Origin: Candidatus Cloacimonadota bacterium
Lineage (GTDB): Bacteria > Cloacimonadota > Cloacimonadia > Cloacimonadales > TCS61
Reading direction: 5' to 3'
Assembly (NCBI GenBank): GCA_018400535.1
Contig: JAGYMQ010000034.1
Span: 10,137 to 74,136 of the forward strand
DNA: 64,000 nucleotides
Below, in pieces: positions 10,544-49,262 of the stretch; within the stretch, counting starts at the first letter, position 1; every line of letters starts with the position of its first letter. The notes under the pieces were generated by a model. It was not told the DNA's origin. It saw only the letters and a program-made list of their open reading frames with translations, and did no database searches. The position numbers were made by a program, and so were the translations under genes.

Positions 10544-10555
10544 ATTTTCCTCCAT

Positions 10556-30021: not shown

Positions 30022-30070
30022 GAAAAAACAAGTAGAATAGATAAATCAAAATTTACTTATCTATTCTACT
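30022..30070 (-). terminator. Rho-independent terminator ending the metabolic supercluster
   Basis: A perfect 14-bp stem agtagaatagataa/ttatctattctact is followed on the minus strand by gttttttc. Confidence 0.8.
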
Positions 30071-30100
30071 TAAATTAGTTTTTCAATTTAATATTTTTTT

Positions 30101-30655: not shown

Positions 30656-30668
30656 TTTGTTCCTCCTT

Positions 30669-31514
30669 TCAAATCGTTGCTGTTTTGTGTCTGTCTGCAT
30701 GACATTGTACATTCACGGCGACAGGCATTGAAGCGATGTGACAAGGTTTGTGCAGGATATGAACCGCCAGAGCTGTCGTTCTGCCGCCCAAACCTTGTGG
30801 TCCGATTCCTAAATCATTGACTTTTTTCAAAATTTCTGCTTCCACTTCTGCCCATTTCGGGTCTGGATTTTCTTCGTTTAAAGAACGCAGTAGAGATTTT
30901 TTTGCCAGAAGTGCACTTTGCTCAAAATTTCCGCCCAAACCGACTCCAACAACGACAGGCGGGCAGGGATTTCCTCCAGACCGCTTGATGCGATCTACCA
31001 CGAAATCGATGACGCCTTCGATCCCGTCTGCTGCTTTCATCATTTTCACTTCGCTCATATTTTCGCTTCCGCCACCTTTGGGAGCAACGGTTATCTTCAA
31101 TTTTTCTCCGGGCACAATATCGGTATAGATCAAAGCTGGAGTATTATCTTTCGTGTTTTTTCTTTCAATGATCGGATCATCGACCATAGATTTGCGCAGA
31201 TAGCCATCTTGGTAGCCTTGTCGCACACCTTCATTGATCGCTTCCTCAAAATTTCCACCTGTGATATGAACATCCTGTCCTATTTCGATAAAAATAACAG
31301 CAACGCCAGTATCCTGGCAGATCGGCATTTTTTCCTGAGCAGAAAGTTCATAATTTTCCAATAAAATATCCAGAACTTCTTTTGCCGTTTCCGATTCTTC
31401 CTTTGCCTTAAATTCTTTGATCTTGTCGATCACATCATCGCCGATATAATAATTCGAATCAATACACAATTTTTTTACTATCGGGATGATCTCCTTCACG
31501 TCAATGGTTCGCAT
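30669..31514 (-). CDS. Class I Fe-S hydro-lyase alpha subunit (fumarate hydratase FumA/TtdA type)
   Basis: It has a CQDTG cluster-ligand motif. Its length and sequence fit the N-terminal domain of the two-subunit fumarase family. Confidence 0.8.
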   Translation of the reverse strand: MRTIDVKEIIPIVKKLCIDSNYYIGDDVIDKIKEFKAKEESETAKEVLDILLENYELSAQEKMPICQDTGVAVIFIEIGQDVHITGGNFEEAINEGVRQGYQDGYLRKSMVDDPIIERKNTKDNTPALIYTDIVPGEKLKITVAPKGGGSENMSEVKMMKAADGIEGVIDFVVDRIKRSGGNPCPPVVVGVGLGGNFEQSALLAKKSLLRSLNEENPDPKWAEVEAEILKKVNDLGIGPQGLGGRTTALAVHILHKPCHIASMPVAVNVQCHADRHKTATI

Positions 31515-31908
31515 TAGAACTCCTTATTTTAATTTTTTTTAGATGTAGTTCAATCAGGGTTTTTCCCAATTGCAACATAATATCATCAAATGATCTCAAT
31601 ATCTTATTTTCTGGGAAACGAATAAATTGATAATCAAAATGTTCAAGCAAGATCCTACGATTGATTTTGTATTCTGGCTGCAAGCTGTGAATTCCTTGAT
31701 CCAATTCAATGATGAGGTTGTGATCAGGACAATAGAAATCTACCAGGAGAAATCTTTTTTCTCCTTGATGATCAAACAAAATGGGATGACAACGCTGAAA
31801 TTTCTTGTTGAGAAAATTCCCGTCCTTCAAATGTTCCCAGATCAGATGATGACTATTTGCTTCATTTTGACAATACTTTTCAACGGTTGTTTTGATCTTT
31901 TTTTTCAT
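31501..31908 (-). CDS. DUF559 endonuclease-like domain protein
   Basis: [20 protein letters not shown]...FIRFPENKI matches the DUF559 (Vsr/restriction-endonuclease-like fold) pattern. It overlaps the sucD stop by 4 nt and the fumarase alpha start by 14 nt. Confidence 0.7.
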
Positions 31909-32780
31909 GGTCTTGCCATAATTTTTTTCACACTTTTTCCAATATCAGCAGGAGATTCTGTGACGGTTACGCCAGCTTTTTCGAGAGCTTTCATTTTTTC
32001 GCGAGCTGTGCCTTTGCTACCAGCAATGATCGCGCCTGCATGTCCCATTCGCTTGCCTTTGGGAGCAGTTTGCCCGGCGATGAAAGCAACAACAGGTTTG
32101 TGAAATTCTTCTTTGATGAATTTTGCAGCTTGGATCTCCATATCGCCACCAATTTCTCCGATCATCACTACTGCCTTTGTTTCATCATCTTCTGCAAAGA
32201 GTTTTAGTAGATCAACGAAAGAAGAGCCGATGATAGGATCTCCGCCGATCCCGATTGCTGTGGTGATGCCGAATCCAGCTTCCACTACTTGATTTGCTGC
32301 TTCATAGGTTAGAGTTCCTGATTTGGAGATCAAACCGATTTTCCCTTTTTTGAAAACAAAACCTGGCATAATTCCTACTTTGGCTTCTTCTGCAGAAATA
32401 ATTCCCGGACAATTTGGTCCGATCAATCTTACATTCTGCTCTTTACAAAATTTCTTTGCTAACATCATATCTGAAGTTGGAATGCCTTCTGTGATACAAA
32501 CGATAACTTCAATCTCTGATTCAGCAGCTTCCATCACAGCATCTGCGGCGAAAGAAGGTGGAACAAAGATCAGGCTCACATTTGCTGCTGTTTCCTTTTT
32601 GGCTTCTGCCACAGTATTGAAAACCGGTTTTCCGAGGTGAATCTTTCCGCCTTTTCCAGGGGTGACGCCGCCCACGATTTTTGTGCCAAAATCTAAACAT
32701 TGCTGAGCATGGAAACTGCCTTCTTTACCGGTGAAGCCTTGCACGATAACACGAGAATTTTTATTTACAAGGATGCTCAT
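31905..32780 (-). CDS. sucD: Succinate--CoA ligase (ADP-forming) alpha subunit
   Basis: [10 protein letters not shown] and the phosphohistidine loop MGHAGAII. Confidence 0.92.
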
Positions 32781-33952
32781 TTTTGTTCTCCCTTTGCTGC
32801 GATTACCGCTTTCTGTGCGCCATCAGCCAGATTGGAAGCATAGATAATGTTCTTGATTTTAGCGTTTTTCAGGATCTGGGCAGCTTTTTCGGAATTTGTA
32901 CCATCCAGACGAACAATTAAAGGAACAGCCACTTCAGTTTTTTGGGTCGCTTCCAAGATACCATTGGCGATGCGGTCACAGCGCACAATCCCGCCAAAGA
33001 TATTGATAAAGATCGCTTTTACATTCGGGTCTCGCAATATTATATCAAAGCCTTTAGCGACGGTTTCGGCGCTGGCATTTCCACCCACATCCAAAAAATT
33101 TGCTGGTTCACCTTGATAATATTTGATGATATCCATCGTGGACATGGCAAGACCTGCGCCATTAACCATACAGCCGACATTTCCATCCAGTTTGACATAG
33201 CTCAGATTAAATTTTTTTGCTTCGATCTCGCTGGGTTCTTCTTCGTCTAGATCGCGCAATTTTATTATTTCTGGATGACGAAACAGAGCGTTATCATCGA
33301 AATTTATCTTTGCATCCAAAGCGATAAAGTTGTTTTCCTGGGTGAGTACCAGTGGATTGATCTCGATCAAACTTGCGTCTGTTTCCAAATAGACTTTGTA
33401 TAATGTGCTGGCGAATTTAGAGAATTCTCGCTGCTGTTCTTTGGTAAGTTTCAGACCGAAAGCCAATTTTCTGGCGTGGAAATTTTGGAAACCGGTTAAA
33501 GGATCGATCGCAATTTTTATGATCTTCTCTGGATTTTTTTCAGCTACTTTTTCGATTTCCATACCGCCTTCTGTGGAAGTTATCATCACGGGTTTTTCCA
33601 GCGTCCGATCTAAAACGATTCCCAGATAAAATTCAGTTTGGATGGCGACTCCACCTTCGAGATAGACTTTTTTAACGATTTTACCTGCATCTCCAGTTTG
33701 GTGTGTGATGAGTCTCATTCCCAAAATTTCTGATACGAATTTTTTTACTTCTTCGATGTTTTTAGCAATTTTAACGCCGCCTGCTTTTCCGCGTCCACCA
33801 GCGTGTACCTGTGCTTTCACCGCCCAGATGTTTCCGCCGATTTCCTTGGCGGCAGCTTCGGCTTTTTCTTCTTGTGAGATTATTTTGCCAGGCGGAATTG
33901 GAACTCCGTATTGTGCAAAAATCTCTTTCGCTTGATACTCATGAACTTTCAT
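32777..33952 (-). CDS. sucC: Succinate--CoA ligase (ADP-forming) beta subunit
   Basis: The N-terminus [18 protein letters not shown] and an ATP-grasp region. It overlaps sucD by 4 nt. Confidence 0.92.
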
Positions 33953-33959
33953 AACACCT

Positions 33960-34412
33960 CTATTTCAGATTTTGTTGTTCAATAATTGTTTTGACTAAAT
34001 TGGGAATTTTTGCTTCGATTTTGGGAGTGCATCTTTCGGAAAATGTGAAAGTATCTTTTACTTCGATACCGTAAATCTCGATTTCTGCTGGTAATTTACA
34101 ATTTTCCTTTTTCATGATCTCGAAAGCTTCGAAAAGACTGATATCATGCGGAGAAGAATGATGCAATGTGTTCTGAAATTCCTGCCTGTCAAAATGATGT
34201 AGTGTGCCAAATTCTGCCTTTCCAGTTTTCACCGAATCGATCAAGATAAGCTTGTCATATCCGATAATTTCGTCAATCACGCGAAAACCAGCAGCGCTTG
34301 CTTCTTTCACGTCACATTGGAAACATTTCTGCTGGATATGATTTGCCACGTGAATTCCCACGCCGTCATCAGAAAGAATCGTATTACCCAAACCCAAAAC
34401 CAGCGTTCTCAT
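33960..34412 (-). CDS. [NiFe]-hydrogenase maturation endopeptidase
   Basis: LVLGLGNTILSDDGVG motif, 150 aa, directly downstream of the large-subunit gene. Confidence 0.8.
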   Translation of the reverse strand: MRTLVLGLGNTILSDDGVGIHVANHIQQKCFQCDVKEASAAGFRVIDEIIGYDKLILIDSVKTGKAEFGTLHHFDRQEFQNTLHHSSPHDISLFEAFEIMKKENCKLPAEIEIYGIEVKDTFTFSERCTPKIEAKIPNLVKTIIEQQNLK

Positions 34413-34419
34413 GAATGAA

Positions 34420-35883
34420 TTAATCTCGTTTCAAAGTCTGAATTTTATTTTTCTCATTATCATAGATATTCACGATCAAAGGAGTTTTGCCCGGAAGTGA
34501 ATGCGTAGCGCAAGCAAGACAAGGATCATAGGGACGGAAAGCCATCTCGACCATGTTTAATATCTCGTCAGTAACCTTTCCTTTTTTAATCAATTTTTGG
34601 GCAGCCTTGGCAATGGACATCGACATAGCGGCAGAATTTCCTACAGTTGCCACAATTAAATTTACGGCTGTGACCAAGCCTTTTTCATCAGTTTTATAAT
34701 GATGGATCAAAGTTCCGCGCGGAGCTTCTACAACTCCGACTCCTTCATCAGGAATCGAAGTGGGAATATTGCGGATATTGGGATTTGTGATCGATTTATC
34801 GGAGAGAAGTTGTTCCAATCTTTCTGCCAGATTCACGACTTCGATCAAACGAGCCCAATGAAAAGCTAATGTATTATGAGCTGGTTTTCCGCCCAAAATA
34901 TCATACATTTTTTCAAATTCTTGCTGTGCGATCGGTGTTCCCATCGCATCGGCGACGTTCAATCTTGCCAAAGGTGCGACGCGATAGACTCCACTTTCTT
35001 TTCCATCTTGAAATCCTTTCCAGCCAATATTTTTCAGATAGGGGAACTTCATATAACTCCAGGGTTCGACACGCTCTTTGATGTGATCAAGATAATTTTC
35101 TGATGAGAATTTGGCGATCTCTTTTCCTTCAGGATCGACGACACGAATTTTTCCATCATAAAGGTCAGGATAGTTATTTTCGTCAACCAAGCCCATATAA
35201 TAGGTTTTGTGTTTGTAAATATCACCGACAACGAGATCAACATATTTATCATTTTTCAAAACGATATCATCGAAAATTTGCATGGCGAATTTGGAAAACT
35301 CTACTGTTTTTTTGGCGATTTGAAGATATTCCTGTCTTTTCTCTTCGGTAATGCCTTTGGAGACTCCGCCGGGAAGACCACAAACAGGATGGATCACACG
35401 TCCACCAAGTTCAGTTATGATGCGTCTTAGATCGCGACGTGCTGCGATCACTTTCTTTCCGATCTCAGTTCCCACTTTTCCCACAACGCCCAGAATATTT
35501 CTTTCGGCAGGAGGTGCGTCGGGCCCGACCACGAAATCAGGACCTCCCAGGAAGAAGAAATGCAAAAGATGATCTTCCATTACAAAAGCGCTATTGATCA
35601 CCCTGCGGATCTTGACAGCAGTTTCGGTTGGTTTCACTTGATAGACGGCATCGACAGTTTTTGTGGAAGCCATGTGATGCGTTGTCGGACAAACACCGCA
35701 GATACGTGGAGTGATTCGTGGAAGTTCTTCGACGGGTCGGCCGATACAAAATTGTTCAAAGCCTTTTAATTCAGGAACTTGTAAATAAGCATTTTTGGCG
35801 TTGCCTTCATCATCCAGAAATATTTCTATTTTGCCGTGTCCTTCCAATCTCGTGATTGGATCAATTGTTACTTTTTTTGTCAT
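34420..35883 (-). CDS. mvhA: [NiFe]-hydrogenase large subunit, cytoplasmic Mvh type (group 3c-like)
   Basis: ITRLEGHG and RICGVCPTTH near the N-terminus and DPCLACATH near the C-terminus. A roughly 26-aa tail after the His would be removed by the protease. Confidence 0.88.
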   Translation of the reverse strand: MTKKVTIDPITRLEGHGKIEIFLDDEGNAKNAYLQVPELKGFEQFCIGRPVEELPRITPRICGVCPTTHHMASTKTVDAVYQVKPTETAVKIRRVINSAFVMEDHLLHFFFLGGPDFVVGPDAPPAERNILGVVGKVGTEIGKKVIAARRDLRRIITELGGRVIHPVCGLPGGVSKGITEEKRQEYLQIAKKTVEFSKFAMQIFDDIVLKNDKYVDLVVGDIYKHKTYYMGLVDENNYPDLYDGKIRVVDPEGKEIAKFSSENYLDHIKERVEPWSYMKFPYLKNIGWKGFQDGKESGVYRVAPLARLNVADAMGTPIAQQEFEKMYDILGGKPAHNTLAFHWARLIEVVNLAERLEQLLSDKSITNPNIRNIPTSIPDEGVGVVEAPRGTLIHHYKTDEKGLVTAVNLIVATVGNSAAMSMSIAKAAQKLIKKGKVTDEILNMVEMAFRPYDPCLACATHSLPGKTPLIVNIYDNEKNKIQTLKRD

Positions 35884-35894
35884 AAGAAATCCTC

Positions 35895-36899
35895 TTAAAT
35901 TTGTTTTTCGCTACGAGTTCTGTGCAACATTGAGACGGGCAAAGAAAAGCGATAGAATGTGCCAGCTGGATCAACGATTTGATCCATCAATTTTGTGATC
36001 TTTTCTTCATCATAATCTTCTTCATTTTCCACTCCCAAAATTGATGCAAGAGCTGAAACCATTTTTCCTCCGACATCTTTGACATTGTTCGGCGCTCCGT
36101 AGCAACCGCGACACGGCATATTCACCGTGATACATCTGCCATCACCCTCTTTTCGGCAACCAGCTCGTGTGACTGGCCCCATACAGATAATACCTTGCGC
36201 TAGAAAGCATTTTTCCGGGTCAGCATCGACGAGAGATATGCGATTGATCTCATCGAGCATTAGCTTTTCAGGTTTTGTGTCATTACGAGAGCAGACATCG
36301 CACAGTGATTTATCGGGAGCCAAAACAGATCCTTTTGCTGGAAGATCATTAGCCAATATTTTATGGATCGCTTCCAAAGTGAGATAGGGAGCTGGCGAAC
36401 AGCCAGGAATGTAATAATCTACAGTCACAACTTGATCCAAGCTTTTCACTGTATTATGAAAAGCAGGAAGCGTCAATTCTCCTTCAGGTACTTTCACTTT
36501 TGTTTCAGGGACAATATTTTCTGGGTTTTCGATAGAAGGGCAGGCAGCTTTGTAGGAAACATCAAAAATAGAATGTTTATCATAGAAATTTGCTAATCCT
36601 GGAATTCCGCCGAGATGGGAACAAGCTCCGAACGAAATGACCATTTTAGATTTTTTTCGCAAAAGTTTTGCCATTTCCAATTGTTCATCAGTTCTGATCG
36701 CACCATTGATAAAGCAGGCATCAATTTCCTGATCAGCCATTTTTCTAACATCAGCATATTTAAAATCCATAGCGCAGGGCCAAAATACAATATTTATCAG
36801 ATCAGCGACTTCCAATATTTTTTCGTTTAGATCGATGATCGCTTCTTCACAACCACCACAGGAAGCGCACCAATAAAAAGCAACTTTTGGTTTTGCCAT
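35895..36899 (-). CDS. mvhG: [NiFe]-hydrogenase small subunit, Mvh type
   Basis: FYWCASCGGCEE, GACSHLGGIPG and C-terminal Cys clusters (CMGPVTRAGC, PCRGCYG). It has no twin-arginine signal. The ATG at 36899 is preceded by GAGGAGG. Confidence 0.8.
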   Translation of the reverse strand: MAKPKVAFYWCASCGGCEEAIIDLNEKILEVADLINIVFWPCAMDFKYADVRKMADQEIDACFINGAIRTDEQLEMAKLLRKKSKMVISFGACSHLGGIPGLANFYDKHSIFDVSYKAACPSIENPENIVPETKVKVPEGELTLPAFHNTVKSLDQVVTVDYYIPGCSPAPYLTLEAIHKILANDLPAKGSVLAPDKSLCDVCSRNDTKPEKLMLDEINRISLVDADPEKCFLAQGIICMGPVTRAGCRKEGDGRCITVNMPCRGCYGAPNNVKDVGGKMVSALASILGVENEEDYDEEKITKLMDQIVDPAGTFYRFSLPVSMLHRTRSEKQI

Positions 36900-36975
36900 T
36901 AACCGAACCTCCTCTATATTAACAAGAAACTTTTTTTTCAAACTTTATTGTGATCAAATGCAAATGAACTCTCCG

Positions 36976-38646
36976 CTAAAACAACGTTCCGTGATAGGTT
37001 GTAGTCAATTGTTTTGCTTTGACATGTGTCGGAATGTAGTCGGGTAATAAGATTGGAGATATTCTTTTTTCATCAATTCCGAGTTCTTTCACTTCTTTGG
37101 CATATTTATCGATATGTTCGAGCATCATTTTACCAATTTGAATTCCGTCCAGAATTTTCTCTGCAGCGAATTTTCCCGCTCTTCTACCGAAAACTACAAC
37201 ATCCAATTGAGAATTTCCCATCAAGCGATTGCGACCGTGCACACCACCAGAACTTTCTCCAGCAACAAAAAGTCCAGGAACGCGGGTTTCAGCTTTTGCG
37301 TTGATCTCAATTCCACCATTTTGATAATGTAAAGTGGGATAGACCAGCATTGGATATTTGCGGATATCGATATCAAAACGATGATATTGTCGAAGCATCG
37401 CTGGTAGGTTTTTCTCTATCGTTCCAGGTCCAGACAATGATTCGATGAGCGGACTATCTAACCAAATTCCCTTTAGGCCGGAAGGTGTCGTCACTCCCAT
37501 ATCATTTTCACATTCGCGGATAAAAGCAGAAGCTTCGATATCACGTGGTTCAAGTGGAAAAACAAAGAGCTCGCCATCTTTATTCACAGGCTGTGCACCA
37601 AGTCCGCGGATTTTTTCTGTGCAAAGAAATCCAACGATCTGTTCAGGAAAAACAGCGCCAGTAGGATGGTATTGAACAGAATCCATATAAAGTAAATTTG
37701 CACCTGCGCGATAGGCCATAACGAGTCCATCAGCTGTCGCGCCATAATGATTTGTGGTTTCGAAACCTCGCACATGCAATCTACCAAAGCCACCTGTAGC
37801 GATGATGACGCTTTTTGCTTTGACTACAAAATATTTTTTCAGTTCCAAATGATAAACGATCGCACCAGCAGTTTGCCCTTTTTCATCCAGAATGATCTCT
37901 GTGGCAGCGCAATATTCCAGAAATTTAACTTTATCAGGACGATTTTGCACTTCGTCGCGCAAGACGCGGCAAATTCCAGCACCAGTATAATCTCGCGTGG
38001 AATGCATCCGATTTCGGCAAGTTCCTCCTCCCGATTTGACCATCATTCTACCATCTTCATATTTATCGAACATAACGCCGTTTTTTTCCAGCCATCTGAT
38101 CGTTTTAGGAGCATCCATCACAAGAGCTTCTGCCAGTTCCGGTTTGTTATCAAAATGACCACCACCCATCACATCGAGATAATGTAGAACGGGAGAATCA
38201 TCGGGTTGGTCAGCAGCTTGAATACCACCTTGAGCCATCATTGAATTGGAATCACCCAATCTTAATTTCGTGATGATCATGGTTTCAACGTTTTTATTTG
38301 AAGCTTCGATCGCGGCAGATAATCCAGCTGAGCCAGCTCCGATAATGAGAACGTCTGTTTCATAGTCAGGTTGAGAAAGATCGAATGTTTGGGAAAGATT
38401 GCGCGGATAAGATTCCAAAACATCGACTACTTCATTGATGATCTTCTCACCTTTGTTTGGTCCGAGATGTACTTCTTTCAAAGCATCATCTTTATAGTCT
38501 GGATGATAGGTATTGAGAATGTCGCCTCGCTCTTTTTCTGTCATCGGCTCATAAACTTGTTTGCCAAATTTTTTCGCCAGTTCCAATCTTTTATTGCGCG
38601 TTTTTTCTACTTTTTTTATTGATTCTAACATATAATCTGGATACAT
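36976..38646 (-). CDS. SdhA/FrdA-family flavoprotein (soluble fumarate reductase/succinate dehydrogenase-like)
   Basis: DVLIIGAGSAGLSAAIEA FAD fold, AQGGI, ATGGFG and YHPTG motifs. It has a roughly 95-aa N-terminal extension. Asn replaces the His that is flavinylated in SdhA/FrdA. Confidence 0.75.
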   Translation of the reverse strand: MYPDYMLESIKKVEKTRNKRLELAKKFGKQVYEPMTEKERGDILNTYHPDYKDDALKEVHLGPNKGEKIINEVVDVLESYPRNLSQTFDLSQPDYETDVLIIGAGSAGLSAAIEASNKNVETMIITKLRLGDSNSMMAQGGIQAADQPDDSPVLHYLDVMGGGHFDNKPELAEALVMDAPKTIRWLEKNGVMFDKYEDGRMMVKSGGGTCRNRMHSTRDYTGAGICRVLRDEVQNRPDKVKFLEYCAATEIILDEKGQTAGAIVYHLELKKYFVVKAKSVIIATGGFGRLHVRGFETTNHYGATADGLVMAYRAGANLLYMDSVQYHPTGAVFPEQIVGFLCTEKIRGLGAQPVNKDGELFVFPLEPRDIEASAFIRECENDMGVTTPSGLKGIWLDSPLIESLSGPGTIEKNLPAMLRQYHRFDIDIRKYPMLVYPTLHYQNGGIEINAKAETRVPGLFVAGESSGGVHGRNRLMGNSQLDVVVFGRRAGKFAAEKILDGIQIGKMMLEHIDKYAKEVKELGIDEKRISPILLPDYIPTHVKAKQLTTTYHGTLF

Positions 38647-38658
38647 ATTTTCTCCTGT

Positions 38659-39348
38659 TTAGGAAATTTTGATTTCTCTTTTATAATAAGTTTCAGAAAG
38701 TTCTTTTCTGCCCATTTTTTTTAGTTTGTCCATTTCTTGGTCAAATTTGCCTTCTGAGATCTCTTTTAACCTTTTTTCCAGTTCAGGGCTTTTGCGGGAA
38801 AGATATTTGCCATAAAGTCTGCGAGCTAATGTGGCATTGTTATATTGGACGATCTCAGCAGGGCATCTCAGAGCGCATAAACCGCAACGAATACAGTCGA
38901 AAGAAAGATCAGCTGCTTTAGCGATGTCGCCGCGGATCAGCGCTTGAACGTAATCCATAACTTGGATATCTTGCGGACAGGCTTTGGTGCAGGTGTTGCA
39001 AGCAACGCAGCGAAAGACGCTGGGAAAAAGCTCCATGAATGTGCTCACATCTGGTGACAATTTATCAAGATCATAAGTTGGTTTTTCTGCTGGAACAAAA
39101 GGGATTTGGGTCAAGGCCATTCCGTCTGTGACAACTGTTTGACAGGCGAGGCCACCTTTCAATTTATAATCACCTTTTTCGCGATAGACAGTAGCGCACG
39201 CCCCGCAATATCCTTCGCGACAGCCGACTCCTCGTTTCAATTGAAAGCCTGCATATTCCATCGCTGTAACGATCGTTGAACCTTCTGGCACTTCAAAAAG
39301 TTCCCCTGAAATGTAAACTTTAACCATTTTTCTTTTTTCTTCAGCCAT
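38659..39348 (-). CDS. Iron-sulfur protein with [2Fe-2S] and two [4Fe-4S] motifs (SdhB/FrdB-like partner)
   Basis: CREGYCGACA...C (plant-type 2Fe-2S) followed by CVACNTCTKACP and CIRCGLCALRCP. The ATG at 39348 is preceded by AGGAGG. It overlaps the mvhD stop by 8 nt. Confidence 0.65.
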   Translation of the reverse strand: MAEEKRKMVKVYISGELFEVPEGSTIVTAMEYAGFQLKRGVGCREGYCGACATVYREKGDYKLKGGLACQTVVTDGMALTQIPFVPAEKPTYDLDKLSPDVSTFMELFPSVFRCVACNTCTKACPQDIQVMDYVQALIRGDIAKAADLSFDCIRCGLCALRCPAEIVQYNNATLARRLYGKYLSRKSPELEKRLKEISEGKFDQEMDKLKKMGRKELSETYYKREIKIS

Positions 39349-39775
39349 TAGATATATCCTCCTTGCGGTCATATTTTGGGATGGGGCCGAGAGCTCTGAT
39401 CTGCTCGGTGAAGTCTGTCATCTGACGAGCAAATTTATTTCCTTCGCTGGCAGATATCCATTCCAATCTTAATCTATCAGGATTGATTCCCATTTGTTCG
39501 AGAACTCGCTTCAATAATACAATTCTACGTTTTGTTTTATAATTTCCTGTTTGATAGTGACAATCTCCTGGATGGCAACCACCGATAAAGATACCATCGC
39601 TGCCACGGGCAAAAGCATGCAAAATGTGTTCACTATCAATTCGGGATGAACAGAGTGTCTTGATGACTATACCATTTGCTGGATATTTCAAGCGAGATGT
39701 TCCAGCCAAGTCTGCTCCGGCGTAGGTGCACCATTTACAAAGGAAACAGACGATCTTTGGTTCAAATCTTTTCAT
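39341..39775 (-). CDS. mvhD: Methyl-viologen-reducing hydrogenase delta subunit (MvhD)
   Basis: KIVCFLCKWCTYAGADLAG...GGCHPGDCHY pattern typical of MvhD/FlpD. ATGA overlap with the hdrA stop. Confidence 0.8.
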   Translation of the reverse strand: MKRFEPKIVCFLCKWCTYAGADLAGTSRLKYPANGIVIKTLCSSRIDSEHILHAFARGSDGIFIGGCHPGDCHYQTGNYKTKRRIVLLKRVLEQMGINPDRLRLEWISASEGNKFARQMTDFTEQIRALGPIPKYDRKEDISNG

Positions 39776-41757
39776 ATCATATCCTCTTTTTCCAAACTAT
39801 TTTCCAAATTATCCTGAAGAATTATATCGATCATGTTGTTGATTTGATCATCGGTGAGATTTCGCTGTTGTGAAGCGCTGGATGGACAGGCTGAAATGCA
39901 AGCTCCACAACCTTCACACAAAACTTCATTTACTTCGGCAATTCCGTCAAAATTCAAAGCACGAGCTCCGTAGGGACAGGTAGAAATACATATTCCACAG
40001 CCAGAACATTTTTCTTCATCAACCCAGGCGATGATCGGCTCATGATAGATCTCTTGTTGTGACATCAAGGCCAGAACTTTTGCAGCTGCGCCAGATGCTT
40101 GCGCGACAGAATCTGGAATGTCTTTCGGCCCTTGCGCTGCACCAGTGAGGTAAAAACCTGATTGAATGCTTTCCAAAGGACGCAATTTCGGATGTGCTTC
40201 ATTCAAGAATCCATGTTCGTCTGTACTCAATTTGAGATTCTGGATCAATTTGTTCACGCCTTCGCTTGGAATCATCGATTGTGCGAGAACGACGAGATCG
40301 GCTTTGATCTCGATTTTTTTCCCAGTCAGCGTATCCATTCCGTGCACAATCATTTTATCGTCTTCTTTGTAAATCTTTGCTACTTTTCCTCTAATATAAA
40401 TGACGCCATCTTCGGACACAGCTTGTTGGATAAATTCTTCATAACGCTTTCCACCAGATCGGATATCAATGTAAAATATGTATGGTTGCCCATCATGAAC
40501 TTTGTGTTTATATAACTTTGCGTGTTTCAACGAATACATGCAGCATATTTTTGAGCAATAGGAATTGTGTCTTTCGGGATCACGTGAACCCGAGCACTGA
40601 ATAAAAACGATTTCTTTAGGAATTTTGCCGTCGGAAGGACGAAGCATTTTTCCACCGGTAGGTCCAGTGGCAGAAAGAATTCGTTCAAATTGTAATCCAT
40701 TGAGGACGTCAGGAAATTTTCCATAGCCATATTCAGCCATTTTTTCGACAGGATAAAGGTCATAGCCAGTTGCAAGAATGATCGCACCGATCTTTTCTTC
40801 AAAAGTTTCTGGTTTTTTATCATAATTAATTGCTTCTGGTTTGCAAGCTTTTCGACATTCACCGCAGGCGATAGGATCAAAACCGAGACAATTTTCTGTG
40901 TCGATGGTGAACGTAGCTGGAATTGCTTGTGGAAATGGAACATAGATCGCTTTGCGCCAGGAAAGACCTTCATCGTATTCGCTGGGAACGACGACAGGAC
41001 AATTGTCAATGCAATCTCCGCACATTGTGCAGATATCTGGATTCACATATTGCGGTTTACGATTGATCTTTGCCGTGAAGTTTCCTACAAAGCCTTCTAC
41101 TTTTTCCACTTCGCTATTCACGTATAATTTAATATTTTTATGTTTGGCAAGCTGCACCATTTTAGGCGTCAGAATGCATTGCGAACAATCGAGCGTGGGG
41201 AAGGTTTCCGAAAGCTGGATCATGTGTCCGCCAATAGATGGCTTTTTTTCAACCAGGAGCACTTCATAGCCTCCGTCTGCGATATCAAGTGCTGCTTGGA
41301 TGCCAGCGATGCCACCACCGATCACCATTACTCTTTTAGTCATCGGAGAAGAAACTGGCGATAGAGATTCATTCAGGCGCAGTTTTTCCAAAGCTGTCTT
41401 GATGATGAGATTTGCTTTACGAGTTGCTTCTTCTTTATCATTGTGTACCCAGCTGCATTGTTCGCGAATATTAGCGATCTCCAATTGATATTTATTGATG
41501 CCCATTTCTTCTATCACATTCTGAAAAGTTGATTCGTGTAAGGTGGGAGAACAAGCGGCGATGACTACACCATCCAGTTTATTTTCTTCGATAGCTGCTT
41601 TGATCTGGTTCTGTCCTGGATCGGAGCACATGAACATATAGTTCTCGATATGCACCACGCCTGGATAGTTTTCCAATTGTTCTGTCAACAATTCCACATC
41701 AACAGTATCTTTGATATTCACACCGCAATGACAAATAAAAACACCGATTCTTTTCAT
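39772..41757 (-). CDS. hdrA: Heterodisulfide reductase subunit A-like flavoprotein
   Basis: IGVFICHCGVNI N-terminal Cys motif, VIGGGIAGIQAALD FAD fold, an internal CTMCGDCIDNCP and a C-terminal CSGCGICISTCP...CEGCGACISACP ferredoxin domain. Confidence 0.85.
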   Translation of the reverse strand: MKRIGVFICHCGVNIKDTVDVELLTEQLENYPGVVHIENYMFMCSDPGQNQIKAAIEENKLDGVVIAACSPTLHESTFQNVIEEMGINKYQLEIANIREQCSWVHNDKEEATRKANLIIKTALEKLRLNESLSPVSSPMTKRVMVIGGGIAGIQAALDIADGGYEVLLVEKKPSIGGHMIQLSETFPTLDCSQCILTPKMVQLAKHKNIKLYVNSEVEKVEGFVGNFTAKINRKPQYVNPDICTMCGDCIDNCPVVVPSEYDEGLSWRKAIYVPFPQAIPATFTIDTENCLGFDPIACGECRKACKPEAINYDKKPETFEEKIGAIILATGYDLYPVEKMAEYGYGKFPDVLNGLQFERILSATGPTGGKMLRPSDGKIPKEIVFIQCSGSRDPERHNSYCSKICCMYSLKHAKLYKHKVHDGQPYIFYIDIRSGGKRYEEFIQQAVSEDGVIYIRGKVAKIYKEDDKMIVHGMDTLTGKKIEIKADLVVLAQSMIPSEGVNKLIQNLKLSTDEHGFLNEAHPKLRPLESIQSGFYLTGAAQGPKDIPDSVAQASGAAAKVLALMSQQEIYHEPIIAWVDEEKCSGCGICISTCPYGARALNFDGIAEVNEVLCEGCGACISACPSSASQQRNLTDDQINNMIDIILQDNLENSLEKEDMI

Positions 41758-41767
41758 TTTAGCCTCT

Positions 41768-42649
41768 TTAGATCAATTGCTTATCTTTTAACAAAGGCAA
41801 CGGGTCAACTGCATGCAATTCACTCCACGAAGCTTCCCACGTGTGTCCTAATGCTAAAGCCAATAATTCTGTAAAGTAGAAAACAGGAATATTTACAAAT
41901 CCGACATATTCTTTTTCGATCTCTTTTTGCAGGAAATCAAGATTATAAGCACAAAGTGGGCAACTCGTGACGATCGCATCGCAGTTTGCTTTTTTGGCTG
42001 AATTTAAAATTTCATAACATCGTTTGACGCTGACGTCCTTTTGAGTCAAAGTTTGATAAGCACCACAGCATTCTAACTTGTATGGATAATCGATCGCTTC
42101 AGCACCCAAAATTCTGAGGAAGTCTTCAATGATAGTTGGTTCTTCAAAATCATCGATAGCAAATTCTTTTGGACGTACCAGCAGACAACCATAATATGCG
42201 CCTAACCTTAAAGATTTTAAGGGATTGTGCACCAGCTTTTCTATCGTCTCATATTTGATCCTATCCTTAAGAATATTAAAAAGATGATAGACTTGGATAT
42301 CTTGATCATATTCAATATTTTCTCGATACATAAAATCGGTAACTTTTTTTAGATTATCGGGATCAGAATCGATGAAAGCTTTGGATCGGTTCAAAGTGTT
42401 ATAGCACATACTGCAGAGTGTAACCAATTCATCAAAACCTTGTTCTTTGGCACGTAATAGATTTCGAATGGAAGCAAGATGCAGCATCAGATCATCATCT
42501 GTTTGAGAAAAGACAGTGCCACAACAGACCCAATCCTTCATTTCAACCAGTTGATGTCCCAGAATTTCCATTGCTTTGATAGCAGAATCTTCAAAATGGC
42601 TGGCATTTGCTTTCAGAGTGCAACCTGGATAATAGGGTAAATTCATCAT
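41768..42649 (-). CDS. hdrB: Heterodisulfide reductase subunit B-like protein (two CCG domains)
   Basis: YYPGCTL at the N-terminus plus the motifs WVCCGT and LECCGA. Confidence 0.8.
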   Translation of the reverse strand: MMNLPYYPGCTLKANASHFEDSAIKAMEILGHQLVEMKDWVCCGTVFSQTDDDLMLHLASIRNLLRAKEQGFDELVTLCSMCYNTLNRSKAFIDSDPDNLKKVTDFMYRENIEYDQDIQVYHLFNILKDRIKYETIEKLVHNPLKSLRLGAYYGCLLVRPKEFAIDDFEEPTIIEDFLRILGAEAIDYPYKLECCGAYQTLTQKDVSVKRCYEILNSAKKANCDAIVTSCPLCAYNLDFLQKEIEKEYVGFVNIPVFYFTELLALALGHTWEASWSELHAVDPLPLLKDKQLI

Positions 42650-42688
42650 ATTCCTCTTTTTTGCTTTGATCTCATTATTCTCATTTTT

Positions 42689-43096
42689 TCAACCTGTCAT
42701 TTTACGCATCGCACTAACCAACAAGATAGGAGGTGTTTCTTTTATGTTCTGGATCTGTGTTTTATTTGGTTCAACTTTACTAAATCTTTTTCGCAAATTG
42801 ATCGCACGAAAAGCTTCCATAACCTTGGAGACATCAATTCCTTTTGGGCAACGCGAAGAGCATTGCAAACAAGTAGAACAGATCCAAATAGTTTCGCTAT
42901 CCAGAATTTCTTGAATCGCACCAAATTGTGCTAATCGCATAACCTGATTTGGAGAAATGTCCATATAGTCAACGACTGGGCAACCAGATGAGCAATTTCC
43001 GCATTGATAACAATCGAACACATTTTGAGCAGATATTTCTTGAACTTGTTCTGACAGAGAATTTTTGATCGCTTTATTGTTCAATTTGTAGAACAT
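42689..43096 (-). CDS. hdrC: Heterodisulfide reductase subunit C-like 2x[4Fe-4S] protein
   Basis: CYQCGNCSSGCP and CSTCLQCSSRCP with the HdrC-type spacing (...PNQVMRL...). Confidence 0.75.
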   Translation of the reverse strand: MFYKLNNKAIKNSLSEQVQEISAQNVFDCYQCGNCSSGCPVVDYMDISPNQVMRLAQFGAIQEILDSETIWICSTCLQCSSRCPKGIDVSKVMEAFRAINLRKRFSKVEPNKTQIQNIKETPPILLVSAMRKMTG

Positions 43097-43098
43097 AA

Positions 43099-43635
43099 CT
43101 ATTCTCCTTTGTAATTGTAACCATAATCAAAAGCTTTGATATTCAAATCTTTAAATTTTGCTGGAACTGAGCCGATGATCGCTTGTTTCATTGCTTCTGG
43201 TGATGCGATCTTTGCTTGTGCGGTAGCGAATCCCAACATCACAATGTTTGCCACGATCTTTTTTCCCAGTTCTTCTGCGATCCTGGTAGCAGGAATTTTT
43301 TTTGCTTTGAAATTTTTATGAGATTGTAGATTTGTCACAAGATCGCTATCGTAAAGCAAAATTCCATCTTCAAGCAAGATATGCAAAAATTTGTCATATC
43401 CTTCCTGGGACATTGCGATTAAAATCTCTGTTTCATCTACTAACGGATAATCTACTTCTTGTGGGGAAATAACTACTTGAGAACTGCAGGCACCACCGCG
43501 AGCTTCTGGCCCATAAGCTTGTGTCATCGAAGCATTTTTCCCATCGAAAATGGAAGCTGCTTTTCCTACAATGTATGAGGAAAGGATTATGCCCTGTCCG
43601 CCAAATCCAGATATTTTCACTCTCAATTCTTTCAT
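43099..43635 (-). CDS. 2-oxoacid:ferredoxin oxidoreductase gamma subunit (set 1, KorG/OorC-like)
   Basis: ISGFGGQGIILS motif. The ATG at 43635 is preceded by AAGGAGA. Confidence 0.85.
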   Translation of the reverse strand: MKELRVKISGFGGQGIILSSYIVGKAASIFDGKNASMTQAYGPEARGGACSSQVVISPQEVDYPLVDETEILIAMSQEGYDKFLHILLEDGILLYDSDLVTNLQSHKNFKAKKIPATRIAEELGKKIVANIVMLGFATAQAKIASPEAMKQAIIGSVPAKFKDLNIKAFDYGYNYKGE

Positions 43636-43648
43636 GCATTCTCCTTTT

Positions 43649-44524
43649 TCAAACAACGCTCTCACGATTTTTGATAACTTTATAATTTTTGGTTTTCACG
43701 ACTCTTTTTTCAATTCCCTTTTGCACATTTTCCCAAAAGGTCGGCCTGTCTTCATTAATGAAAACACCGCAAATGATCTCACCGTTCATTCCAAGAGGAA
43801 TTTTTTGTGGATCAGCTTCATGATCGATTATTGATCGATCTTTGTATTCTCGCAGAATATCGAGCCCGGTTCCACCTTTGTTTTTGCGTGCAAAAACTGT
43901 CGAGCAGGGAGAAACCACTTCTAAAAAGCAAAATCCCTTTTTCTTTGCCATTTCTTTGATCGTATCGGTCAAACGGTGAAAATGAAGCGCTGTCCATCTT
44001 GCCACATAAGATGCTCCAGCAGCAGCAGCAACGCCCACTAAATTGAAGGGTTGTTCATAATTTCCATAAGGTGCTGTGGAGCTGTATGCGCCTAAAGGTG
44101 TGGTGGGAGCATTTTGTCCGCCTGTCATTCCATAAATGAAATTATTTACGCAGATCACATTCATATCGACATTGCGACGAGCGGCATGAATGAGATGATT
44201 ACCACCGATTGCAAAAAGATCACCGTCACCGGAAATGACAGCGACCGTTAGATCACGATTTGCCAATTTCAAACCAGAAGCAAAAGGAATGGCTCTGCCG
44301 TGCGTTGTGTGATAGGAATCCAATTTAATGTAGCCTGCCACTCTGCCTGTGCAACCAATACCAGAGACGACAGCAACTTTGTTTGTGTCAATTCCAGCAT
44401 TTTTGATTCCTTTCATGAAAGAGTTCACAATCGTTCCCAGACCACAAGAAGAACACCAAATATGCGGCATTCTATCCATTCTCAGATATTTTTCCATCGG
44501 ATGATGAGCTGCGTTATTTTGCAT
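43649..44524 (-). CDS. 2-oxoacid:ferredoxin oxidoreductase beta subunit (set 1, TPP-binding)
   Basis: WCSSCG plus the TPP motif GDGD...NN (ISGDGDLFAIGGNH...CVNNFIYGMTGGQ). The ATG at 44524 is preceded by GAGGAGG. Confidence 0.88.
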   Translation of the reverse strand: MQNNAAHHPMEKYLRMDRMPHIWCSSCGLGTIVNSFMKGIKNAGIDTNKVAVVSGIGCTGRVAGYIKLDSYHTTHGRAIPFASGLKLANRDLTVAVISGDGDLFAIGGNHLIHAARRNVDMNVICVNNFIYGMTGGQNAPTTPLGAYSSTAPYGNYEQPFNLVGVAAAAGASYVARWTALHFHRLTDTIKEMAKKKGFCFLEVVSPCSTVFARKNKGGTGLDILREYKDRSIIDHEADPQKIPLGMNGEIICGVFINEDRPTFWENVQKGIEKRVVKTKNYKVIKNRESVV

Positions 44525-45668
44525 GTGCCACCTCCTCGATTGCTTTAATAATTTCACTTTGACTGTGCATACCGCCGCCAGGATGGGGAAGCCATTTTGT
44601 GGTGCAATATTTAGCGCAACGATCCACTTCCAGAGCGACCTGTCCCATATTTAATTCTGCCACTACAAAGCCTGCTACTTTTTTGGATAGTTCCAAGATC
44701 AATTTTTCTGGAAAGGGCCATACCGTTATCAAGCGTAGATATCCAATTTTTATGCCTTTTTTCTTTGCTTTTTCGATCGCCGGAATGACCGTTCTGGATG
44801 TGATGCCATAGGAAATCACGATTACATCTGCATCATCGATATCCCGTTTTTCCAATAGAATTATCTCTTCAGAATTATCGCGTATTTTATTGATCAATCG
44901 ATTCACCAGCTTGATATGAGTTTCCACAGACATATCCGGATAACCTTTTTCGTTGTGGGTGAGACCTGTAGAATGATAAAGATGACCATCGCCAGCTTTA
45001 GCAAAATCTGGAACAAATTCATCATCACAACATTCATAAGGCTTGTATTGATCACCTTTTTTATTAGTGTATTTCCTTTCGATCAATTCCAATTCTTCGG
45101 AAGGTGGGATCACGACTTTTTCTGTCATGTGTCCCACAACGGCATCTGCCATAATGAAAACTGGAAGTCGATATTTTTCTGAAAAATTAAATGCTTTGAT
45201 CGTTAGGTCAAAATATTCTTGCGGAGATTTTGGACAAAGTGCTATCGATCCATAATCTCCGTGTGAGCCCCATCTTGCTTGCATCATGTCGGATTGACCC
45301 CAGGAAGTGGGCAGTCCAGTCGAAGGAGATCCTCTTTGGACATTAACGACCACGCAGGGAGTTTCCATCATCATGCCCAATCCGATATTTTCCAGCATCA
45401 AGGAAATACCTGGTCCGGAAGTCGCTGTCATTGATTTCACGCCAGCCCAAGATGCACCCAATATTGAAGCCATCGAAGCGATCTCGTCTTCAAATTGCAC
45501 AAATACTCCGTCCAATTGTGGAAGTCGATAGGACATTCTTTCAGCTATTTCAGAAGCAGGCGTGATGGGATATGCGCCAAAAAACCTGCATCCAGCTGAG
45601 ATCGCTGCTTCAGCGCAAGCATAATTACCCTGTAAAAAAAATTCACCGTGCATATCACTGATTCTCAT
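44514..45668 (-). CDS. 2-oxoacid:ferredoxin oxidoreductase alpha subunit (set 1)
   Basis: GAYPITPASEIAE and ATSGPGISLM motifs. ATGA overlap with the delta gene. Confidence 0.88.
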   Translation of the reverse strand: MRISDMHGEFFLQGNYACAEAAISAGCRFFGAYPITPASEIAERMSYRLPQLDGVFVQFEDEIASMASILGASWAGVKSMTATSGPGISLMLENIGLGMMMETPCVVVNVQRGSPSTGLPTSWGQSDMMQARWGSHGDYGSIALCPKSPQEYFDLTIKAFNFSEKYRLPVFIMADAVVGHMTEKVVIPPSEELELIERKYTNKKGDQYKPYECCDDEFVPDFAKAGDGHLYHSTGLTHNEKGYPDMSVETHIKLVNRLINKIRDNSEEIILLEKRDIDDADVIVISYGITSRTVIPAIEKAKKKGIKIGYLRLITVWPFPEKLILELSKKVAGFVVAELNMGQVALEVDRCAKYCTTKWLPHPGGGMHSQSEIIKAIEEVAHAK

Positions 45669-45925
45669 TTCACCTCCTCACGAATAACAAAAATTGCCGA
45701 ATCGGGGCAAATGGATTCACACAGACCGCAGTAGGTACACTTTTTTGTAAAAATGATCTCGGGTGGATGATAGCCTTTTTTGTTAAATTCATTTGAAAAA
45801 TCTAAGACATTATTTGGACAGAATTCAATACAGAAACCACAGCCTTTGCAGCGATCTTTGAAGATATTAATCGAGCCTTGAAAGACTTGAGGCTTTTCTC
45901 TACCAAAGGGTTTTTCCCAATATTT
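45665..45925 (-). CDS. 2-oxoacid:ferredoxin oxidoreductase delta subunit (set 1, 2x[4Fe-4S] ferredoxin-like)
   Basis: CKGCGFCIEFCP and CTYCGLCESICP. I prefer the ATG at 45925 (GGGAG RBS). The track start at 45958 would place a terminator 6 nt upstream of the gene. Confidence 0.75.
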   Translation of the reverse strand, partial: KYWEKPFGREKPQVFQGSINIFKDRCKGCGFCIEFCPNNVLDFSNEFNKKGYHPPEIIFTKKCTYCGLCESICPDSAIFVIREEVK

Positions 45926-45963
45926 CATAGCAACTCCCGTCATCTCAAATTTTAACATTTACC

Positions 45964-45997
45964 AAATAAAAAAAGCAGTCCACTAAACAGACTGCTT
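45964..45997 (-). terminator. Intrinsic terminator at the 3' end of the 280-nt mce-to-OFOR spacer
   Basis: On the minus strand, aagcagtc-tgtttagtg-gactgctt is followed by tttttttattt. Confidence 0.7.
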
Positions 45998-46272
45998 CAC
46001 TGAAATTTTGCATTTTTCTATGCAAAAGAAAGGTTTGCTCCTGAAAGGAGAAAAACCTTAATCTTATATTTCTAATCAGCTTTATTGACTGATCTAATAT
46101 CAAAATAATCCCCTTTTGTGAGAACTAATATTTCTTGAAAACTCCTCACAATATGGCGGATTAAATTGTGAATTGAGAATTAATTGTCAATTAGAAAATC
46201 CAAAATTCAACATTTTTTTTTATATTGCATAACATTTATAGCTGACAACAAACTATAATATAACGAAATACA

Positions 46273-48078: not shown

Positions 48079-48079
48079 C

Positions 48080-49252: not shown

Positions 49253-49262
49253 TTTTTCTCCT

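Follow-up and report, generated by a model that had tools for sequence, protein, structure and literature searches.

Could fumarate, rather than a heterodisulfide, serve as the high-potential electron acceptor of a soluble bifurcating complex built from hydrogenase and heterodisulfide reductase (Hdr) subunits? The question is raised by a locus in a stretch of 64,000 nucleotides from a Candidatus Cloacimonadota bacterium (assembly GCA_018400535.1, contig JAGYMQ010000034.1, positions 10,137 to 74,136), referred to here at its full length as the window and numbered from its first letter. In this locus, genes for a soluble fumarate-reductase-type flavoprotein (frdA) and its iron-sulfur (FeS) partner (frdB) lie between mvhD and mvhG, inside a gene set for an Mvh-type [NiFe]-hydrogenase and HdrABC. 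Based on gene content, motifs and a comparison of related loci, we lean slightly toward reading the operon as a membrane-free, H2-dependent fumarate-reducing system on an Mvh-Hdr bifurcation scaffold, in which hydrogen oxidation and fumarate reduction would be directly coupled. It is a further example of a cluster type that has been described genomically but is biochemically uncharacterized, and not a discovery. Nine genes form its center:

42689-43096, minus strand: hdrC, subunit with two [4Fe-4S] clusters (Pfam Fer4_17/Fer4_8; two CxxCxxCxxxCP motifs)
41768-42649, minus strand: hdrB, two intact CCG domains (PF02754, twice)
39772-41757, minus strand: hdrA, flavin adenine dinucleotide (FAD) and FeS subunit (HdrA-type FAD and Fer4 domains; HdrA2 model, 826 bits)
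39341-39775, minus strand: mvhD, [2Fe-2S] connector subunit (PF02662, FlpD, 1.5e-52)
38659-39348, minus strand: frdB, subunit with one [2Fe-2S] and two [4Fe-4S] clusters (Pfam Fer2 and Fer4 dicluster)
36976-38646, minus strand: frdA, soluble fumarate-reductase-type flavoprotein of 556 amino acids (aa) (PF00890, FAD_binding_2, 1.9e-72, residues 98-479)
35895-36899, minus strand: mvhG, [NiFe]-hydrogenase small subunit (PF01058, Oxidored_q6; best family VhuG, 167 bits)
34420-35883, minus strand: mvhA, group-3c-type [NiFe]-hydrogenase large subunit (NiFeSe_Hases; best family VhuA, 425 bits)
33960-34412, minus strand: hydrogenase maturation endopeptidase (HycI; TIGR00072, 102 bits, above the cut-off of 47)

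The identity, order and strand of these nine genes agree with the preliminary description of the locus, but the boundaries given there were too narrow. The unit comprises 18 minus-strand genes running from 45958 to 30101 in the order korDABG-hdrCBA-mvhD-frdBA-mvhGA-protease-sucCD-DUF559-fumAB. At each of the 17 junctions between korD and fumB, neighboring genes overlap or stand no more than 76 nucleotides (nt) apart. Recomputation reproduced every junction value reported earlier: hdrA and mvhD share a 4-nt overlap (ATGA), mvhD overlaps frdB by 8 nt, and the gaps measure 39 nt (hdrC-hdrB), 10 nt (hdrB-hdrA), 12 nt (frdB-frdA), 76 nt (frdA-mvhG), 11 nt (mvhG-mvhA) and 7 nt (mvhA-protease). At the two ends of the nine genes, korG is separated from hdrC by 2 nt and the protease gene from sucC by 7 nt. 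Alternative starts exist for frdB (39348 or 39372) and for mvhG (36899 or 36941); AGGAGG-type ribosome-binding sites precede 39348 and 36899, the starts chosen originally, and translation of frdB is predicted to be coupled to that of mvhD. The spacers flanking the unit measure 314 nt on the korD side and 444 nt on the fumB side, and a terminator-like minus-strand hairpin is found in both, the one at the end of the unit being:

30029-30072, minus strand: terminator-like hairpin with an 18-bp stem and a T-run

Inside the cluster, for which no terminator had been reported, only hairpins of 5-6 bp within coding sequence were seen, none of them convincing. The genes from korD to fumB are thus best read as one long operon. 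Matches to sigma-70 promoters were about as frequent as in shuffled sequence (48 versus 47.2 +/- 6.5) and were not used. As described before, no gene of the cluster encodes a membrane anchor by Kyte-Doolittle hydropathy (maximum 19-residue mean of 1.75 in the nine genes), and anchor-like hydropathy was likewise absent from all 22 open reading frames (ORFs) between 30101 and 49363, where fumB reached a maximum of 1.88.

The assignment of the inserted pair carries most of the argument. FrdB (229-237 aa) combines a CxxxxCxxC...C [2Fe-2S] motif with two CxxCxxCxxxCP motifs, which are predicted to bind two [4Fe-4S] clusters, unlike the [3Fe-4S] cluster of classical SdhB, and its resemblance to SdhB is weak. 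A Pfam scan found no CCG domain in FrdB, and the model for TfrB, the FeS subunit of thiol:fumarate reductase, matched only the 2Fe-2S part with 33 bits (cut-off 385). In FrdA, the FAD fold and HPTG motif of the preliminary description were recovered as the FAD_binding_2 match and the sequence QYHPTG. The alignment to Escherichia coli FrdA conserves the equivalents of H232, T244, E245, R248, R287, H355 and R390, and in a family alignment of 41 sequences the catalytic and dicarboxylate-binding residues among them (H232, T244, E245, R287, H355 and R390) are invariant. The histidine that binds FAD covalently in the E. coli enzyme, His44, is replaced by asparagine (DSNSMMAQGG), as expected for a soluble enzyme. 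FrdA further possesses a conserved N-terminal extension of 95 residues and about 35 residues beyond the end of its TfrA match (residue 521); the Succ_DH_flav_C domain was not detected in it, and its C-terminal region is truncated. An AlphaFold2 model of the single chain (mean predicted local distance difference test score, pLDDT, 75; predicted template modeling score, pTM, 0.81) retrieved E. coli FrdA and the Mycobacterium smegmatis Sdh1 SdhA at the top of a Foldseek search, with L-aspartate oxidase (NadB) at rank 35.

Curated family models scored FrdA highest as TfrA (326.5 bits), followed by the Sdh/Frd model (298) and NadB (270), all below their cut-offs; for TfrA the cut-off is 718, and positions 6-426 of the 546 in the profile were matched. 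A look-up of the exact flavoprotein sequence returned no match. Full-length homologues share 69-98% identity, and their named sources are metagenome-assembled genomes (MAGs) of Cloacimonadota, Marinimicrobia and Delongbacteria. In a search of 1.84 billion representatives clustered at 50%, the FrdA family came to about one full-length representative plus sibling families sharing the N-terminal extension. Ten full-length relatives from this search were classified with NCBIfam models, which stands in here for a phylogeny with named SdhA, FrdA, TfrA and NadB sequences. One of them (P0197), the nearest classical relative, passes TfrA (765 versus 718), two have an Sdh/Frd model as their best match but stay below its cut-off, and not one can be called NadB. 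The kept catalytic residues, TfrA as the best-scoring family and a nearest classical neighbor above the TfrA cut-off all bear out the fumarate-reductase-type pair that had been proposed.

The same scores could nevertheless be taken to mean that the flavoprotein is an L-aspartate oxidase or some other FAD_binding_2 superfamily enzyme and not a fumarate reductase, since FrdA misses every curated model including TfrA, NadB models score little lower (270 versus 326 bits), and its architecture is odd, with the N-terminal extension and no Succ_DH_flav_C match. This we regard as highly improbable. FrdA does not reach the nadB cut-off (TIGR00551, 269.7 versus 452.75), and no NadB was found among the ten classified relatives; the classical relatives nearest to FrdA are TfrA and Sdh1-type proteins. 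The NadB reading, named beforehand as one that would refute the proposal, is rejected on these grounds. At the position of NadB Glu121, FrdA has Ser205, a residue that varies in the family, although this comparison is a lead, not proof. FrdA is also always paired with a dedicated FeS partner, often beside fumarase and succinyl-CoA synthetase. Two further assignments were tried and rejected: a quinone-linked complex II, on account of the missing anchor, the missing covalent-FAD histidine and a second cluster motif with four cysteines, and strict membership in TfrAB, on account of the TfrA and TfrB scores and of an FrdB that has no CCG domain.

The hydrogenase and Hdr subunits surrounding the pair are more readily placed. 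MvhA carries the NiFe motifs RICGVCP and DPCLACATH noted earlier, its best PDB match is the methanogen MvhA 5odc_F (418 bits, versus 336 bits for the NAD-reducing type), and together with the neighboring MvhD and HdrA it fits group 3c, the class that had been expected. The equivalog cut-offs of VhuA (800) and VhuG (450) are not reached by MvhA and MvhG, respectively; as these models are tuned to methanogens, such a score denotes a non-ortholog of the methanogen enzyme and not an enzyme outside group 3c. MvhG has no twin-arginine (RRxF) leader, as described before; its N-terminus is MAKPKVAFYWCASCGGC. Over its entire length (3-648), HdrA can be aligned with its methanogen counterpart 8rvu_a (703 bits); it keeps the TLDCSxCIL motif and contains the N-terminal CxCG cluster, the FAD domain and the inserted and C-terminal ferredoxin domains; it is presumed to be the electron-bifurcating site. 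The CCG motifs reported for HdrB are present as two complete C-X31-39-CC-X34-35-CXXC motifs with all 10 cysteines. HdrB matches methanogen HdrB 8rvv_B with 128 bits, stays below cut-off both for TIGR03288 (163 bits, cut-off 345) and for SdhE (144 bits), and is the sole CCG protein of the operon by Pfam and NCBIfam profiles. HdrC scores 74 bits on TIGR03290, below the cut-off of 160.

On the favored reading, MvhAG would oxidize H2 and MvhD would convey the electrons to the flavin of HdrA, which would split electron pairs. The low-potential electron would go to ferredoxin, and the high-potential electron would pass along an FeS chain of HdrC, HdrB and FrdB to the non-covalent FAD of FrdA, where fumarate would be reduced to succinate. 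The net reaction would be 2 H2 + fumarate + Fd(ox) -> succinate + Fd(red) + 2 H+, with Fd denoting ferredoxin. Fumarase would provide the fumarate, succinyl-CoA synthetase would activate the succinate, and the 2-oxoacid:ferredoxin oxidoreductase (Kor) would use the reduced ferredoxin, so that the unit would amount to a self-contained segment of the reductive tricarboxylic acid (TCA) cycle: malate -> fumarate -> succinate -> succinyl-CoA -> 2-oxoglutarate. In the thiol cycle of methanogens there are two CCG sites, HdrB reducing a disulfide and the C-terminal half of TfrB re-oxidizing the thiols. Since FrdB has no CCG domain and a single HdrB is encoded, the cluster offers no second site for such a cycle, and with one CCG protein fumarate is favored as the direct high-potential acceptor over a free thiol cycle. 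That mvhD overlaps the well-initiated frdB by 8 nt is also counted toward a direct electron path. With E0' values of -414 mV for H2, +33 mV for fumarate (value cited in PMC5861303) and about -500 mV for ferredoxin, the estimate for the forward reaction is about -70 kJ/mol at standard state and about -24 kJ/mol at 10 Pa H2. Subunit association, bifurcation itself, electron transfer by way of HdrBC and the direction of operation in the cell are what we infer from these features.

Several points weigh against this reading. The CCG sites of characterized Hdr and Tfr enzymes act on thiols and disulfides, and an acceptor at +33 mV squanders far more energy than a heterodisulfide does. As both CCG motifs of HdrB are intact, electrons might still be passed on by way of a thiol or a DsrC/TusA-like protein. 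FrdA and FrdB fall so far under the TfrA and TfrB equivalog cut-offs (326 versus 718 and 33 versus 385) that the assignment of their substrate depends on residues and context. The kor genes are called 2-oxoglutarate type by best match only, under cut-off, and a methylmalonyl-CoA epimerase encoded upstream suits a succinate/propionate branch equally with autotrophy. Finally, the member proteins are known from sequence alone. On the favored reading, an Hdr-type bifurcating complex would deliver electrons straight to fumarate as its terminal acceptor, and the non-cubane clusters of HdrB would act as a relay and not as a site of disulfide reduction.

How the cluster varies among relatives bears on these alternatives. 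A scan of a one-genome-per-species collection gave 276 confirmed relatives of the flavoprotein. Of their loci 80 were retrieved, from Cloacimonadota, Neomarinimicrobiota, Delongbacteria, Aminicenantes, Sumerlaeota and others, and numbered with the prefix L; the window proteins were mapped onto them by tblastn. Counts are based on 41 loci whose flanks extend 6 kb or more upstream and 3 kb or more downstream (full loci):

frdB next to frdA: 41 of 41 full loci
hdrA: 40 of 41 full loci
hdrB: 38 of 41 full loci
kor: 24 of 41 full loci
fumarase: 14 of 41 full loci
sucCD: 9 of 41 full loci

The electron input module differs: 10 full loci contain Mvh, 13 contain a Flx-like NAD(P)H module and 18 contain neither, and Mvh and Flx never occur together. 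The Mvh type shares with the window the placement of frdBA between mvhD and mvhG, so the insertion reported earlier is conserved, and the genes are packed as tightly as in the window; in L006 and L050 the gene order from kor to fumB is that of the window, minus a DUF559 match. The Flx type carries two Fer4 proteins and a NAD_binding_1/DHODB_Fe-S protein between mvhD and frdB, an architecture recovered in Aminicenantes, 'Eubacteriales' and Bacteroidales MAGs with FrdA identities of 62-65%. In a compact type, HdrA and MvhD form one fused protein of 794 aa, and hdrC-hdrB-frdB-frdA come next (L010:5574-7958; similar in L004, L013 and L020), with no hydrogenase or Flx donor module near the cluster; its donor may be ferredoxin from the adjoining oxidoreductase. 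In a further variant, seen in the Cloacimonadota relatives L028, L030, L032, L033 and L043, Ca. Celaenobacter among them, two tandem hdrA-mvhD pairs precede frdBA and a single hdrCB pair is present. Mutual exclusion of Mvh and Flx at one site is the pattern expected for a constant core with a swapped donor. Based on this comparison, HdrA/MvhD-HdrBC-FrdAB appears to be that core, and the donor module appears to be interchangeable between H2 and NAD(P)H.

Against direct coupling stands the possibility that Mvh-HdrABC bifurcates to ferredoxin and a disulfide, either a small heterodisulfide or a DsrC/TusA-type protein, and that the thiols then reduce fumarate through FrdAB, as in Williams 2021. 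For Ca. Celaenobacter such coupling is the reading in print (PMC8542988), and for Endoriftia it was weighed as an alternative (PMC11636981). It would account for two intact CCG motifs in an HdrB that aligns with the methanogen protein and for TfrA being the best-scoring family of FrdA. We nonetheless hold it to be rather unlikely: FrdB has no CCG domain, which in TfrB is the thiol-oxidizing site, and matches the TfrB model over the 2Fe-2S part only; the window and nearly all relatives encode one HdrB per cluster; and a scan of the operon revealed no thiol-cofactor or DsrC-like gene. CoM (coenzyme M) and CoB (coenzyme B) are not known beyond methanogens and their relatives. The genes might also encode separate enzymes, with Mvh-HdrABC serving an acceptor of its own and FrdAB fed by ferredoxin or another carrier, so that the operon would reflect co-regulation only. 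The 18 full loci with neither Mvh nor Flx beside frdBA speak for this, as do one locus with frdBA and no hdr within 10 kb (L008) and the compact variants, in which a core with only a fused HdrA-MvhD and HdrCB may run on ferredoxin alone. A mere co-regulation seems distinctly unlikely, as hdrA is tied to frdBA in 40 of the 41 loci across many phyla and three gene orders, frdB overlaps mvhD, and frdBA is internal, between mvhD and mvhG, and not at the edge of the operon.

The complex could instead run in reverse, confurcating electrons from succinate and reduced ferredoxin to H2, and thereby allow membrane-free succinate oxidation in syntrophy, within the oxidation of propionate, succinate, glutamate or other organic acids with fumarate held very low. 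A Kor working oxidatively would match every succinate formed with exactly one reduced ferredoxin, the enzymes of kor, sucCD and fumAB can all work in both directions, the upstream methylmalonyl-CoA epimerase passes its model (TIGR03081, 155 bits, above the cut-off of 115), and Cloacimonadota have been discussed as syntrophs (PMC8892533). We consider this direction quite improbable. The reverse reaction is estimated at about +12.5 kJ/mol at 1 Pa H2 and ferredoxin at -500 mV, and would need a fumarate to succinate ratio below about 1:160, leaving no margin. The digester Cloacimonadota proposed as propionate oxidizers reportedly have no sdh and no sucCD (PMC8892533), which removes the main motive for the reverse reading, and clade B, which bears Mvh-Hdr, is a different group from them (PMC12590816). 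Homologous clusters are in reductive use, in the reductive TCA cycle of Celaenobacter and Endoriftia and in succinate production by Pseudoclostridium thermosuccinogenes (PMC8542988, PMC6315080, PMC7282089), and these together with the operon context of kor, sucCD and fumAB point to the reductive direction. Of the original proposal that fumarate or succinate replaces the heterodisulfide, the forward, bifurcating part is the best explanation, favored by the single CCG protein, and the syntrophic oxidation of propionate or succinate is not supported.

The remaining genes of the operon supply the context used above:

45665-45958, minus strand: korD, delta subunit of 2-oxoacid:ferredoxin oxidoreductase with two [4Fe-4S] clusters (Pfam Fer4 families)
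44514-45668, minus strand: korA, 2-oxoacid:acceptor oxidoreductase alpha subunit (NF006412, 547 bits, above the cut-off of 411)
43649-44557, minus strand: korB, thiamine pyrophosphate-binding beta subunit (PF02775)
43099-43665, minus strand: korG, gamma subunit (PF01558, 1.1e-34)
32777-33952, minus strand: sucC, succinyl-CoA synthetase beta subunit (NF001913, 579.5 bits, above the cut-off of 370)
31905-32780, minus strand: sucD, succinyl-CoA synthetase alpha subunit (Pfam CoA_binding and Ligase_CoA)
31501-31908, minus strand: DUF559 ORF with an endonuclease-like domain between sucD and fumA (PF04480, 2.8e-15)
30101-31514, minus strand: fumA and fumB, class I fumarate hydratase alpha and beta subunits (NF004885, 417 bits, above the cut-off of 276; PF05681, PF05683)

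KorA scores 384 bits as a 2-oxoglutarate synthase alpha subunit, below the cut-off of 579, and the best NCBIfam match of KorB is the 2-oxoglutarate:ferredoxin oxidoreductase beta subunit (256 bits, below cut-off). Upstream of the operon, the region 46273-49363 on the minus strand encodes another 2-oxoacid:ferredoxin oxidoreductase, of three subunits, and after it the methylmalonyl-CoA epimerase, a block that hints at a succinate/propionate branch; in L002 and L004 an oxidoreductase of this second type lies directly upstream of the hdr/frd genes and replaces korDABG. The DUF559 ORF overlaps both sucD and fumA. A 39%-identical copy occupies the same site in L001, and no DUF559 match was found in L006 or L050, where the gap between sucD and fumA is 93 and 5 nt, respectively. 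It is probably a passenger outside the pathway, a small insertion in a metabolic operon.

Immediately upstream of korD lies one further conserved feature:

45962-46195, minus strand: conserved leader of about 230 nt upstream of korD, with a TTGACA-containing box, a conserved hairpin and a terminator-like hairpin

The conserved hairpin is AUCAGUCAAUAAAGCUGAU, and the terminator-like hairpin (45998-45972; with its U-run 45998-45962) is directly 5' of korD. The leader folds with a minimum free energy of -53.4 kcal/mol (z = -3.3). It is conserved in L006 (2500-2760) and L050 (1-225), and in this comparison of three sequences the terminator stem is retained in both of these closest relatives though the inner sequence differs. 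No Rfam family scored above its gathering score, and a pattern scan across metagenome contigs gave no match. The mechanically assigned korD start, ATG 45958, has no ribosome-binding site and abuts the terminator U-run; the true start is probably ATG 45927, with GGGAG as ribosome-binding site upstream. As the hairpin ends about 35 nt from this likely start, no space is left for a promoter downstream of it. The leader may govern the entire operon, acting as a transcription attenuator or in the manner of a riboswitch.

Farther from the operon, two paralogues of about 600 aa from the aconitase/homoaconitase/isopropylmalate-isomerase family, fusions of large and small subunits, are encoded just downstream (24999-26774 and 27174-28982, minus strand). 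At 8666-10555 on the minus strand lies a gene for a MutL-family protein (PF13941) of the type linked to glutamate mutase, which may be a sign of glutamate fermentation. Other genes in the window are ordinary chromosomal ones (hrcA-grpE-dnaK-dnaJ, uvrB, enolase, recN and an SprA-like protein), and its G+C content is about 39%. This G+C content, the SprA-like gene and the named sources of the flavoprotein homologues together make a Cloacimonadota origin most probable.

If direct coupling is true, one soluble H2-driven machine would power two reductive TCA steps, the reduction of fumarate and, through ferredoxin, the carboxylation of succinyl-CoA, and membrane, quinone and ATP-driven reverse electron flow would all be dispensable. 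Fumarate would be added to the high-potential acceptors of flavin-based electron bifurcation, and the fumarate step in many anaerobes without a quinone-linked fumarate reductase would be accounted for. The window offers a clean and complete example and an attractive target for enzymology.

The cluster type is not new, contrary to the novelty implied in the preliminary description. Williams et al. 2021 (PMC8542988) reported an Mvh-Hdr-Tfr-OGOR-fumarase-SCS cluster in Ca. Celaenobacter (OGOR, 2-oxoglutarate:ferredoxin oxidoreductase; SCS, succinyl-CoA synthetase) and proposed an H2-driven reverse TCA cycle. For the Flx version, Rubin-Blum et al. 2019 (PMC6315080) found korABCD and tfrAB interspersed with flxABCD-hdrABC and suggested a complex that hands electrons directly on to OGOR and the fumarate reductase, and Mitchell et al. 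2024 (PMC11636981) found that cluster to be co-expressed. Koendjbiharie et al. (PMC7282089; 2019 preprint) described a 'succinate operon' in P. thermosuccinogenes that joins fumarase, Flx-Hdr and fumarate reductase genes and is about 4-fold up in this succinate producer, and proposed a fumarate reductase in which the formation of succinate is tied to the reduction of ferredoxin. A 2026 survey restates the bifurcating Hdr-fumarate reductase hypothesis (PMC13147460), and a 2025 survey of the phylum places Mvh-Hdr in Cloacimonadota clade B with no link drawn to fumarate (PMC12590816). The earlier remark that no such module has been characterized held up: our literature searches yielded no purified enzyme or biochemical characterization.

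The closest counterpart is the cluster of Ca. Celaenobacter, a member of the same phylum, which combines group 3c Mvh, HdrABC, frdBA ('TFR'), OGOR, fumarase and succinyl-CoA synthetase, also with frdBA between mvhD and mvhG. The Ca. Celaenobacter antarcticus MAG corresponds to locus L030, with the order korABG-hdrCB-hdrA-mvhD-hdrA-mvhD-frdBA-mvhGA-protease. The window belongs to another lineage (FrdA identity 67%), has one hdrA-mvhD pair instead of two, and carries sucCD and fumAB directly downstream; where that study assumed a heterodisulfide intermediate, an FrdB that lacks the CCG domain speaks for direct transfer. The FlxABCD-HdrABC-tfrAB/korABCD clusters of tubeworm symbionts, Thioflavicoccus (PMC6315080, PMC11636981) and P. 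thermosuccinogenes (PMC7282089) share the core of HdrA, MvhD/FlxD, HdrBC and frdBA, often with kor and fumarase, and the same proposed logic of reducing fumarate and ferredoxin together, but their donor is an NAD(P)H-binding set (NAD_binding_1/DHODB_Fe-S and two Fer4 proteins) whereas that of the window is MvhAG.

Methanothermobacter TfrAB resembles FrdAB in that TfrA is the best curated family, the enzyme is soluble and anchorless, and the FeS subunit combines a [2Fe-2S] motif with two four-cysteine motifs. It differs in that FrdA scores 326 against a cut-off of 718 and carries the 95-aa N-terminal extension, FrdB does not have the C-terminal CCG half of TfrB, and the CCG domains of the window are found only on a separate HdrB. 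The five-subunit fumarate reductase of Hydrogenobacter thermophilus (Miura 2008, as summarized in PMC13147460) is likewise soluble, multi-subunit and part of a reductive TCA cycle, but uses NADH as donor and has its genes dispersed in the genome. Methanogen MvhAGD-HdrABC (5odc, 8rvu) is the template for the remaining subunits, with matches of 703 bits for HdrA, 418 bits for MvhA and 128 bits for HdrB, with MvhD present, and with a cytoplasmic location and no twin-arginine translocation (Tat) signal in common. There the acceptor is CoM-S-S-CoB, whereas the window, from a bacterium of the Fibrobacteres-Chlorobi-Bacteroidetes (FCB) group, has a pair of Sdh/Frd type between mvhD and mvhG.

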